Source: Shigella phage sb1. Taken from it: DNA of 64,000 nucleotides. The number at the start of each line of letters is the position of its first letter. Position 1 is the first letter of the stretch. The position numbers and the translations under genes were made by a program. Positions 3,983 through 6,005 of this stretch are shown here, piece by piece. The DNA lies in the sequence record PQ666539; one strand, written 5' to 3'. Below the pieces are notes generated by a model. It saw nothing but the letters and a program-made list of their open reading frames with translations. It ran no database searches and had not been told where the DNA came from.

Positions 3983-4438
3983 TTAAAAGAGGTTGTTCAT
4001 TATTCTGTAAAGTGAAGGACCCATCACATATTGCCACTGAGTACAAGGAATAAGAGCAAAAGCATCCATCTCTGGAATCATAACGCCATCTTTATTTTCA
4101 AAATAAGACTCACAATGGCAATTTCTAAACATCTCATGCTCTACTGGAATCGTATAATAAAATAGCTGTAAGTCTTTATTACTAGAATATTTAAATACAC
4201 CTAGGTCTTCTAAAAGGTCTGGATTATAATTACTAAAGCCAGTCTCTTCTAAACATTCTCTTTTTGCAGCTTCCAGTGCATTCAAATCAGAACTTTCTAC
4301 ACGCCCCTTTGGAATATCCCAGCGATGTGCCATCATTCCAGGTTTACGAGAACCGGTAACTCGTCCCATAAATAAATCTTTATCTTCTGTCATAAAGATA
4401 ATACCAGCTGATAATGTTTTCATTTTAATTTCCTGCAT
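3983..4438 (-). CDS. nudE: Nudix hydrolase
   Basis: 151 aa directly downstream of e as T4 e.1/nudE; Nudix-box-like REx2EExGF segment. Confidence 0.75.
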   Translation of the reverse strand: MQEIKMKTLSAGIIFMTEDKDLFMGRVTGSRKPGMMAHRWDIPKGRVESSDLNALEAAKRECLEETGFSNYNPDLLEDLGVFKYSSNKDLQLFYYTIPVEHEMFRNCHCESYFENKDGVMIPEMDAFALIPCTQWQYVMGPSLYRIMNNLF

Positions 4439-4908
4439 TCAGTGATAAAATTATTTAAATTTTGAGCATATTTCTTTTCATCAAAAATCTTTTGTTGCTT
4501 GCGCATCCGCCATGGCATTTCAATGAACATGTACCATATTCCTGATAATATTGATGCTGTAAAAATATTAACAAGTATGGTTAAAAGAATCCAATCTCCT
4601 ATTCTGTCCATTGGATTTTTTATAAAAAAGTAAAATACGAATGATGACACAGGAAGACTAATGATATACCACAGAATAACCATCTTATCTGTGAACCATT
4701 CAGCATTCGTTAATTTAGCACGACCATTATGAATGCACACGAATTTATCGTCTGTTATAGTAGATGGCTTAACTGGTTGATATCCCATTCTAAACTCCCT
4801 AATCAACAAATTTTTCATATCTTCGGAACAGCCATTCCAATCAACTCTATCAACTGGAATGCCATCATCCCCATCATCTAAATCATACCAGTGAGTTTTT
4901 AAAATCAT
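4420..4908 (-). CDS. small membrane protein, paralog family member D
   Basis: two hydrophobic TM segments then basic stretch and C-terminal NFITECRKLK; ATGA overlap with upstream gene. Confidence 0.55.
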   Translation of the reverse strand: MILKTHWYDLDDGDDGIPVDRVDWNGCSEDMKNLLIREFRMGYQPVKPSTITDDKFVCIHNGRAKLTNAEWFTDKMVILWYIISLPVSSFVFYFFIKNPMDRIGDWILLTILVNIFTASILSGIWYMFIEMPWRMRKQQKIFDEKKYAQNLNNFITECRKLK

Positions 4909-5279
4909 TTAATTTTCCTGCAATCGCTCACGAACTCTTCCATTGATTCTTTTTCAATATAAGACATATAGCTGTTATATTCCTTTAATTGTATTTTGTA
5001 ATCCTTTTTTCTTTGCCAATTTATTTTAAAATTATCATAATGAAAATATAGTATGGTACCAAAGAATGAAAATAATGAAATCGCTATAGTATAACGAAGT
5101 TCACTCCAAACCTCTGTTATATCTACTATATTGCTGACGTTACTATCGACGTTTAAAATAATACAGTCAATCATTAATCCAATAAAACTACCAGCAAGAG
5201 CTGCAAATACTGACACGGGAAGAATTAATAGTGCCTCGGGAAACGAATAATTGACTTTATTTAGTTTTGGCTTTTGCAT
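4905..5279 (-). CDS. small membrane protein, paralog family member C
   Basis: two TM segments, C-terminal EEFVSDCRKIK motif shared with neighbours. Confidence 0.55.
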   Translation of the reverse strand: MQKPKLNKVNYSFPEALLILPVSVFAALAGSFIGLMIDCIILNVDSNVSNIVDITEVWSELRYTIAISLFSFFGTILYFHYDNFKINWQRKKDYKIQLKEYNSYMSYIEKESMEEFVSDCRKIK

Positions 5280-5653
5280 CGTGATTCCTTAACAAATTTC
5301 ATAATTTCATTAAATTCATACATATCTAGCTTAAGCTGGTGTTCCTTTTTAATCTTTTTACACTGAGCTTTCCATTCACGTACACGTTTACGATAATGCC
5401 TTCCTTGATACCAATATCCTACCCAATTTACAGGTACTAATAAAAGCGGAATTATTAATGGAAGAATTAGTGTTGCTCCAAATATTACACCAGATTCAAT
5501 ATCAGTCATAACGTCTATAACCATTCCAGCAATCACCAGAATCACAAATGATACAGCTACCACAGGACCTATTAACACATCAGTAGAAATTAGCTGACGC
5601 TTTGGTTCATACTTCACAGGTTTACTTGGAAGGTATAGTGATGGCTTTGACAT
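5261..5653 (-). CDS. small membrane protein, paralog family member B
   Basis: ORF track 5261..5674 (TTG); first ATG at 5653; two TM segments; C-terminal KFVKESRCK. Confidence 0.5.
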   Translation of the reverse strand: MSKPSLYLPSKPVKYEPKRQLISTDVLIGPVVAVSFVILVIAGMVIDVMTDIESGVIFGATLILPLIIPLLLVPVNWVGYWYQGRHYRKRVREWKAQCKKIKKEHQLKLDMYEFNEIMKFVKESRCKSQN

Positions 5654-6005
5654 ATTCTCTACATTCCTTAACAAATTTTTCTAATAATAAATCGCTTTCA
5701 AAATTGGGATTTTCTACGAATTTATCAAAAAGATCATCAACAATAGTTAAGATATTCTTTTTACTAAGAATACGTTTATTTTCATATTTTGTTTCAGAGT
5801 CAACTATAAGAGTAAAGAAATATTTCTTTCCCTGAAATTTTACCGTAGTATCAATATAAAACAAATTTGATTTTTTTAAATTACTTTTAAACCATGCATC
5901 ACTTAAAATATAAACGCCAAGATAATCATAATCGTCGTTTAAATAACAAACTGTCCATTCAGGAGAAATGAAATCAGTAAATTCAACATCAAAATCACAC
6001 GTCAA
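5622..6005 (-). CDS. hypothetical protein with paralog-family C-terminal motif; no ATG in frame
   Basis: 127-codon ORF starting at TTG, contains no methionine codon; C-terminal EKFVKECRE motif. Confidence 0.4.
   Translation of the reverse strand: MTCDFDVEFTDFISPEWTVCYLNDDYDYLGVYILSDAWFKSNLKKSNLFYIDTTVKFQGKKYFFTLIVDSETKYENKRILSKKNILTIVDDLFDKFVENPNFESDLLLEKFVKECREYVKAITIPSK

Follow-up and report, generated by a model that had tools for sequence, protein, structure and literature searches.

A C-terminal F-[I/V]-x-x-C-R peptide shared by small accessory genes downstream of e.6 in T4-like phages

Introduction

The FtsZ C-terminal peptide and the SSB tail are examples of docking peptides, through which a single binding site can serve many proteins. 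Among small phage membrane proteins, class II holins combine two transmembrane (TM) segments, an N-in/C-in topology and a basic C-terminus with a gene position beside the endolysin gene, and T4 Imm and similar early inner-membrane proteins act in superinfection immunity. At the level of DNA, promoter-stem-loop (PeSL) cassettes are non-coding promoter/terminator motifs that mediate modular shuffling in the hyperplastic regions of T4-like phages (PMC4122927). Here we describe a short C-terminal peptide, F-[I/V]-x-x-C-R, at the ends of the minus-strand genes e.2, e.3 and e.5, and in degenerate form e.4, of Shigella phage sb1 (record PQ666539), and compare it with each of these systems; the window analysed is a stretch of 64,000 nucleotides (nt) of this phage.

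The genes e.2 to e.5 are long-known T4 open reading frames (ORFs), and accessory membrane proteins are familiar in hyperplastic regions. In the CRISPRi-ART supplement T4 e.2–e.6 are given as unknown and all as “Not Fit”, i.e. their knock-down is without fitness effect (PMC11879866); a search of the literature on e.2–e.8 or msp1–8 returned nothing on function and found the genes in that supplement only. PHROGs assigns e.2, e.3, e.4 and e.5 to four separate families (phrog_2203/35263, 2330, 2604 and 2607, respectively), described as of unknown function or merely as “membrane protein”. Because databases file the four genes as unrelated families, the tail that they share is not captured. The original prediction, made from the sequence alone, read this region as a tandem array of paralogous small proteins with a common C-terminal motif.

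Results

A Shared Tail at the Ends of e.2, e.3 and e.5

By comparison with annotated T4, the minus strand of the window carries e (lysozyme), nudE, e.2, e.3, e.4, e.5 and e.6, the T4 gene order between e/nudE and e.6 being preserved on one strand. Across both strands of the window, F[IVL]xxC[RK] occurs three times in 287 ORFs of at least 40 amino acids (aa), in every case in the tail of e.2, e.3 or e.5; for the 146 ORFs that reach 60 aa, shuffling gives an expectation of 0.14 tail motifs. The motif is present in adjacent genes far beyond chance. The rest of the T4 genome (segments L029, L030, L001 and L031) yielded tail copies only in T4 e.3, in T4 e.5 and in a 51-codon remnant of e.2. We defined the tail module as [FW]-[IVL]-x-x-C-[RK] within the last ~30 residues with a hydrophobic residue at −3, a definition that takes in e.2, e.3 and e.5; e.4 has the F, V and R, but a Ser at the Cys position, and in a scan with a hidden Markov model (HMM) of the motif it ranks next after the true copies.

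The e.2 orthologue (4420–4908, minus strand, as are all genes below) is full length, at 162 aa, with 87% identity to T4 e.2 over residues 1–97 (blastp E 6e-66; phrog_2203 profile E 3e-77), and its motif codons F-I-T-E-C-R (TTT ATC ACT GAA TGC AGG) lie at 4432–4449. The e.3 orthologue (4905–5279; 124 aa, 77% identity to T4 e.3, blastp E 3e-67, profile E 2e-59) has F-V-S-D-C-R at 4917–4934. The e.4 orthologue (5261–5653; 130 aa from the ATG at 5653, 82% identity to T4 e.4, blastp E 4e-82, profile E 1.5e-69) carries the degenerate F-V-K-E-S-R at 5279–5296, in which F, V and R are kept and Ser replaces Cys. Its sequence continues F-V-K-E-S-R-C, and the codon of this Cys is the TGC overlapping the e.3 start (cgATGCaa). 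At the motif Cys position e.4 has Ile in Mosigvirus and Val in Dhakavirus, whose e.4 has no Cys. The e.5 orthologue (5622–6236; blastp E 1e-89 and, for a second piece, 2e-42, profile E 1.7e-64), here a pseudogene or nonsense allele, has F-V-K-E-C-R (TTT GTT AAG GAA TGT AGA) at 5658–5675.

All four tails quoted in the original prediction, NFITECRKLK, EEFVSDCRKIK, KFVKESRCKSQN and EKFVKECREYVKAITIPSK, are present on the minus strand within 4420–6005, but the fourth “gene” (5622–6005, with a TTG start) is really the C-terminal 127 codons of e.5, cut off by an in-frame TGA. Likewise, the proposed FVxxCRK-type motif is found as true copies in e.2, e.3 and e.5, whereas the e.4 copy is degenerate, with its Cys out of register.

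Conservation of the Tail as a Peptide

Within the window the similarity extends to the DNA. The e.5/e.4 and e.4/e.3 junctions are identical at 16 of 16 nt (AAATTTGTTAAGGAAT, p about 0.004), the e.3/e.2 and e.2/nudE junctions at 18 of 21 nt (p about 0.002), and both stretches contain the Shine-Dalgarno (SD) sequence of the next gene (AAGGAA and AGGAAA). The window sequence alone would leave room for an origin in ribosome-binding sites only; judged from the sequences of other phages, comparison settles the matter in favor of the peptide. Among 70 distinct nucleotide contexts the Cys codon is TGC in 37 and TGT in 33, and the Arg codon is AGA in 20, CGT in 18, AGG in 15, CGC in 6, CGA in 2 and CGG in 1. 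Retention of Arg across the AGR/CGN divide is explained only by selection on the protein. In 30 of 79 distinct contexts the motif codons have no SD-like core and F-[IVL]-x-x-C-[RK] is nevertheless intact (29 with R), and the distance from the motif to the stop codon ranges from 1 to 25 residues. The two junction types of the window are unlike each other as DNA (p 0.6–0.8), yet encode the same peptide. In Tequatro-, Mosig- and Dhakaviruses, motif positions 3 and 4 are often Lys-Glu (AAG GAA), probably owing to overlap with the SD sequence. Similarity confined to ribosome-binding sites, which the original prediction had named beforehand as grounds for refutation, is thus not borne out across phages, and the motif stands as a protein feature.

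The spread of the tail was examined at 21 loci around e.6 homologues (60–98% identical) from IMG/VR, to which annotated Mosigvirus, Dhakavirus, Aeromonas-phage and RB43 loci were added; a single-sequence search with e.3 returned only 45 close homologue clusters, all at 67% identity or more, and diversity was gathered via the e.6 loci instead. Downstream of the e.5-type gene lie one to three further motif-bearing genes. The two-TM carriers include e.2, e.3 and RB69ORF133c-type proteins, as well as adjacent pairs of membrane proteins ending in WIKGCRK/WVKGCRK or FIKNCRR/FIKSCRK, and soluble carriers of 95–116 residues end in FIKQCRR, FIKYCRG, FIAKCRA or FLEYCRS. By BLAST clustering, at least 15 families carry the tail across Straboviridae. 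All motif-tailed ORFs of at least 72 aa lie downstream of e.6, the single exception to this placement being a 48-aa motif ORF, possibly spurious, just upstream of e.6 in contig L016.

The extended consensus is hydrophobic(−3)-[N/E/D](−2)-x-[F/W](0)-[I/V](+1)-x-x-C(+4)-[R/K](+5). The Cys is present in 58 of 58 tails selected by regular expression and in every e.5 representative, and is always followed by R or K. The consensus has the spacing i, i+3, i+4, i+7, as on a single helix face, and the hydrophobic moment is greater for a helix (0.39–0.49 at 100°) than for a strand (0.14–0.28 at 160°). The module comprises ~10–20 residues and is predicted to form a helix with its hydrophobic residues on one face.

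A second tandem family, with a different terminus, was observed in Mosigvirus and Dhakavirus (L003, 3857–4651; L004, 3851–5096) as small soluble proteins encoded between e.3 and e.2, and in L019–L024 downstream of the ~100-aa motif proteins. It consists of 3–5 consecutive proteins of 65–101 aa with W-[VF]-[ST]-S-S-x-x-C at the extreme C-terminus (endings GAWVSSSALC, GGWVASSHTC, QGWVSSSYSC, FWFTSSMSC and IWYPSSC).

Relationships between the Tailed Proteins

In hhalign comparisons, e.3, the e.2 membrane half, e.4 and other two-TM families match one another at 65–94% probability when the motif is included, and several of these pairs align only over the last 21 columns. Removal of the last 12–14 residues lowers the values to 0.2–6%, compared with 0.1–1.7% for reversed-sequence controls. 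The exceptions involve a protein with two TM segments encoded after e.5 in contig L022 (9371–9709), a contig resembling Pectobacterium phages; without the motif this protein matches e.3 at 46% (E 2e-4, 81 columns) and e.4 at 24% (E 8e-4, 62 columns). In addition, e.3 matches the e.4 PHROG weakly over nearly its full length (E 0.014), and the N-termini of e.3 and e.4 are alike (MSKPSL and MQKPKL). The two are probably old tandem duplicates, as far as these alignments can tell. Soluble and two-TM families align to e.5 over only 7–17 columns, and profile-profile comparison found no similarity beyond the motif for the e.2 membrane half, e.5 or the ~100-residue soluble families. The paralogous array put forward in the original prediction is therefore retained as a weak relationship of e.3 and e.4 outside the motif, and finds nothing in these comparisons for e.2 or e.5. 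In our reading, the robust shared element would be the terminal module of ~10–20 residues, under strong purifying selection, in an array that has grown partly by duplication.

Architecture of e.2, e.3 and e.4

The e.2 protein has an acidic N-terminal domain, TM segments at ~77–96 and ~105–127, and a basic tail ending in NFITECRKLK. For e.3 the prediction is an N-in protein with two TM segments, an acidic periplasmic loop and a basic cytoplasmic tail ending in EEFVSDCRKIK; e.4 has two TM segments and a very basic tail (net +9) ending in KFVKESRCKSQN. For e.3 and e.4 the net charge is +3 ahead of TM1, −3 in the loop that joins the TM segments and +2 to +9 beyond TM2, and the charge distribution of e.2–e.4 fits an N-in/C-in topology with a positive-inside pattern. 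Mean entropy of e.3 within Tequatrovirus is 0.12 in the cytoplasmic N-terminus and 0.03 in the nearly invariant juxtamembrane tail, versus 0.49 in TM1 and 0.68 in the variable periplasmic loop; this pattern implies that the constrained surface lies in the cytoplasm.

T4 e.2, for which the annotation gives 102 aa, is a version disrupted by a frameshift of the 162-aa gene that is intact in the window. In T4 (NC_000866, 67472–67960; L001, 2473–2628 and 2653–2961) the second TM segment and NFITECRKLK survive as a 51-codon out-of-frame ORF, and this frameshift accounts for the 160-nt “gap” that separates the two genes e.2 and nudE there.

The e.5 and e.6 Pair

The e.5 protein is soluble, with no TM segment, and has 202–204 aa in T4 and relatives, with the C-terminal motif EKFVKECREYVKAITIPSK. 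In the window it is interrupted by an in-frame TGA at 6039–6041 (GGA, Gly, in relatives), leaving two pieces, which align to residues 1–63 and 76–202 of T4 e.5 at 95% and 93% identity, respectively. A search of 1.84 billion representative proteins with an e.5 HMM matched just 27 clusters. Among e.5 lineages at 17–20% identity the only invariant residues are N100 and, from the motif, F188, C192 and R193, which makes the tail the core of the protein; F[IV]xxCR is kept in 19 of the 19 full-length distant representatives listed. The AF2 model places the motif inside helix 180–196, at low confidence. The e.5 families are mutually orthologous, at 88% and 65% probability without the motif, through an intermediate group. 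A precomputed PF26876 label on e.5 is unconfirmed and appears in no paper searched.

An e.5-type protein directly follows e.6 in every locus extending past e.6, including that of the Aeromonas phage, with endings FVKECRE, FIAECRE, FVDQCRA, FIKHCRE, FVESCRK and FIKYCRK. In the Aeromonas phage (Tulanevirus) the e.5-type protein ends in ...MFVDYCRR, and in RB43 (Pseudotevenvirus) a near version, ...KFIHSCKK, is found, with one small ORF between e.6 and the e.5-type gene; the neighboring genes otherwise differ in these two loci.

The e.6 orthologue (6278–6871), the first gene of the transcription unit, is the best conserved of the unit, at 60–98% identity where e.5 has 17–45%. In the window an in-frame TAA at 6353–6355 (GAA in relatives) removes its last 25 residues. 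Both nonsense codons (GGA to TGA in e.5 and GAA to TAA in e.6) are private G-to-T changes in adjacent genes; UGKSEcP1 and Killian, the nearest relatives, have e.5 and e.6 intact, and no phage record contains the 28-mer across either site. Among the ten transfer RNAs (tRNAs) of the window no suppressor able to read the in-frame stops is present. The two codons may stem from joint loss of two genes that function as a pair, from mutation in the laboratory or from sequencing error.

Homologues of e.6 were seen in 1106 phage records, Aeromonas phages among them. Its model shows an N-terminal helix and a ~55-residue helical hairpin, an architecture common to the membrane-shaping BAR, ESCRT-III and PspA/Vipp1 proteins and also to many other coiled coils. 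A PspA/ESCRT-III-like identity for e.6 has no sequence support and the fold search is non-discriminating, making it a lead only.

Recombination at the Repeat and Natural Loss

In a Tequatrovirus contig (IMGVR_UViG_2974787500, here L006, 9594–9956) e.2 is missing and e.3 runs straight into the nudE start, its end reading ...GATTGCAGGAAA-TTAAAATGA-AAACATTATC. The crossover falls exactly within TGCAGGAAA, a stretch common to the e.3 and e.2 3′ termini, and yields the hybrid ...CRKLK end. A CRKLK ending is seen in five of the 45 e.3 clusters, e.3 adjoins nudE in PP01 as well, and ~50 Tequatrovirus-level records have e.3 without e.2 (498 versus 447). Read from these junctions, the coding repeat with its adjacent SD sequence and start codon works as a cassette boundary at which unequal recombination deletes cassettes; by inference, the same recombination would also duplicate them. 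Natural loss is common: e.2 is frameshifted in T4 and deleted in some lineages, and e.5 is broken both in L006, by a frameshift, and in the window.

Transcription Unit and Surrounding Genes

The window belongs to a Tequatrovirus (T4-like); positions 3400–7500 match 645 phage records, with Escherichia phage UGKSEcP1 as the top match (97.5% identity). The genes of the array are closely packed, with overlaps of 32 nt (e.5/e.4) and 19 nt (e.4/e.3) and ATGA overlaps at e.3/e.2 and e.2/nudE; nudE itself (3983–4438; Nudix hydrolase, Pfam NUDIX E 4e-13) is the last gene coupled to the array. A sigma-70-type promoter-like site (TTTACA-17-TATAAT, 11/12) precedes e.6 at 6913–6941 on the minus strand, and no promoter-like site better than chance was found in the e.5–nudE interior; e.5, e.4, e.3, e.2 and nudE are therefore read as one unit. 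The T4 record L13089, which names these genes msp7–msp4 (e.2–e.5), annotates promoters only before e.8, e.7 and e.6, and a stem-loop after e.6 in the same place as a GGGGC-UUCG-GCCCC hairpin of the window (6253–6276, minus strand, between e.6 and e.5). The window hairpin has a perfect stem, extended by flanking A/T pairs; the coding strand has no T run after it, so a role in RNA stabilization or processing seems likelier than termination.

In the e.7 position, 6914–7459 (minus strand) holds a 181-aa ORF with no Pfam match and no similarity to T4 e.7; its 176-aa counterpart in relatives is annotated as hypothetical, and the ORF is an example of cassette replacement. The tRNA cluster at 9561–10388 comprises ten genes (Arg, Asn, Tyr, Met, Thr, Ser, Pro, Gly, Leu and Gln), compared with eight in T4; the window set adds Asn, Tyr and Met and is without Ile. 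No segB homing-endonuclease gene was seen between the tRNA genes of the window.

Several structural claims of the original prediction stand: a W/R/K-rich stretch after a pair of hydrophobic segments in three proteins (e.2, e.3 and e.4), translational coupling through the stop/start overlaps, and location in the variable e-to-tRNA region.

Searches for Function

Searches with e.2–e.6 against Pfam, NCBIfam, PADLOC and sequences of the PDB gave sub-threshold noise only, and the defense and exclusion profiles of PADLOC-DB matched none of e.2, e.3, e.4, e.5 and e.6. For superinfection exclusion or membrane remodeling, the roles suggested at the outset, no match to any defense, exclusion or remodeling family was obtained. 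Public records carry misleading names, namely “sulfurtransferase” (e.3/e.4), “putative phosphoserine phosphatase” (e.5), “host specificity protein” (e.6) and “DNA primase” (one e.3), and none of the database names of e.3–e.6 is supported by profile searches. A rhodanese-type sulfurtransferase was considered for e.3/e.4 and rejected, there being no Pfam or NCBIfam match up to E 1; outside the TM hairpin these proteins consist of tails of about 45 residues.

The T4 prohead protease cuts just after I/L-x-E. A site of this kind at F-I-K-E|C was also rejected, as the acidic residue is absent in several lineages and the proteins are membrane or cytoplasmic, and early.

Discussion

We tentatively propose, as a possibility rather than as the expected outcome, that the tail serves as a docking helix in the cytoplasm, where two-TM proteins lying N-in/C-in in the inner membrane would expose it. 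Since soluble e.5 has the same tail as the two-TM proteins, all may bind one common site, which would be formed either by the tails on each other, as a helical bundle, or by one conserved partner. The best candidate for such a partner is e.6, because it is the best conserved gene, always precedes e.5, and in the window has a private nonsense codon beside that of e.5, which may be a co-loss. A dispensable early complex in the inner membrane would result and would alter the envelope of the infected cell, and the invariant Cys-Arg pair might serve as the specificity element or the reactive element of the contact.

Two alternatives concern the origin of the similarity. If it lay at the nucleotide level, as the SD sequence and start of the next gene or as a recombination box with no role for the peptide, then the 16/16- and 18/21-nt junction pairs carrying the downstream SD sequence, the SD-like core in 49 of 79 contexts and the deletion mediated by the repeat in L006 would all be expected. 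As the sole explanation this is already contradicted by the use of all synonymous families for Cys and Arg, AGR and CGN included, by the 30 of 79 contexts lacking an SD-like core, by a motif placed anywhere from 1 to 25 residues before the stop, and by junction types that share no nucleotide similarity (p about 0.6–0.8); we regard it as highly improbable. Plain tandem paralogy, in which one ancestral gene was repeatedly duplicated and the tail is the slowest-evolving remnant with no separable role, deserves more weight, and we consider it rather unlikely. It would account for the link of e.3 to e.4 without the motif through the L022 protein (9371–9709), the e.3 match to the e.4 PHROG (E 0.014), the 16/16-nt junctions and the similar MSKPSL/MQKPKL starts, and it agrees with adjacent duplicates elsewhere (L021, 13715/14122; L022, 13796/14181) and with the recombination documented at the repeat. 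It sits poorly with e.5, the ~100-aa soluble families and the two-TM families, which outside the motif score 0.1–0.5%, as do reversed controls, and with an e.2 membrane half that matches e.3 only over the last 21 columns. Even if true, paralogy leaves unexplained why F, C and R are the best-kept residues in every family.

Other alternatives concern what the tail, or the proteins that bear it, would do. A Cys beside an Arg could be a thiol of low pKa, subject to modification, bearing a persulfide, or joining several tails through a metal or a disulfide. Such chemistry would suit a Cys that no other residue equals in conservation (58 of 58 tails, and all e.5 representatives) and that always has Arg or Lys after it, as well as the location of the e.6/e.5 pair in the Aeromonas phage and RB43, where thioredoxin, glutaredoxin and nrd genes surround it, and several NCBI records do call e.3 or e.4 a “sulfurtransferase”. 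However, no rhodanese or other thiol-enzyme domain is found in Pfam or NCBIfam, so that the database name is unsupported, in e.4 the Cys is replaced by Ser, Ile or Val, and the redox-gene neighborhood is absent in Tevenvirinae; we find this reading improbable. A reading of the proteins as holin/antiholin-like accessories to lysis scarcely seems credible. In its favor, they are small, with two TM segments, an N-in/C-in arrangement and a charged (basic) tail at the C-terminus, and their genes lie immediately upstream of e, which encodes the endolysin; such features are general among holin classes. The genes, however, belong to a unit headed by the sigma-70-type promoter-like site before e.6, have no holin family match in Pfam or PHROGs, and are neutral when knocked down; annotations assign T4 lysis to t, e, rI, rIII and the spanins, and the tail occurs on soluble e.5 too.

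The docking-helix proposal may be extended, though here we are doubtful, to a view of F[I/V]xxCR as a portable targeting tag. An e.6 scaffold or a host hub would recruit interchangeable clients to the cytoplasmic face of the inner membrane, these clients being soluble e.5 and lineage-specific two-TM and small soluble proteins; unequal recombination at the tag repeats would drive their turnover, and Cys-Arg would provide a specific, possibly covalent or metal-bridged, contact. If so, the genes would constitute a previously unrecognized accessory system of Straboviridae. What appears to be new is the unifying tag, its Straboviridae-wide conservation on unrelated bodies and its role as a recombination boundary, of which a limited literature search found no description. 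In T4-like phages of Escherichia, Klebsiella, Pectobacterium and Aeromonas, e.5 and a variable assortment of membrane and soluble proteins are linked by a single terminal peptide, three residues of which are nearly invariant, and the five orphan T4 genes e.2–e.6 become one unit that can be tested jointly. The locus also offers a concrete case of cassette gain and loss in a hyperplastic region, through recombination between coding repeats that double as translation-initiation regions.

Among known systems, C-terminal docking peptides such as those of FtsZ and SSB resemble the tail in being short, terminal, amphipathic segments with few invariant residues on unrelated bodies; the tail of the T4-like phages, for which docking is a proposal, differs in sequence and in its invariant Cys-Arg. 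The likeness of e.2–e.4 to class II holins lies in their architecture and in the neighborhood of e, whereas they apparently have a sigma-70-type promoter, lack a family match and a role in T4 lysis, and share their tail with soluble proteins. With T4 Imm and similar proteins they have in common that they are small, membrane-embedded, dispensable in the laboratory and encoded among accessory genes; no sequence relationship was found, however, and Imm is without the tail (the T4 motif scan returned e.2, e.3 and e.5 only). Like PeSL cassettes, the array uses short conserved sequences at gene boundaries as recombination points in a variable region, but the e.2/e.3 repeat is coding and is conserved across lineages as peptide, not as DNA. 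The closest relatives are the T4 genes themselves: the window e.2–e.5 are direct orthologues of T4 e.2–e.5, at 77–95% identity, in the same order and with the same overlaps. They differ in that e.2 is intact in the window (162 aa) and frameshifted in T4, whereas the private nonsense codons of e.5 and e.6 belong to the window.

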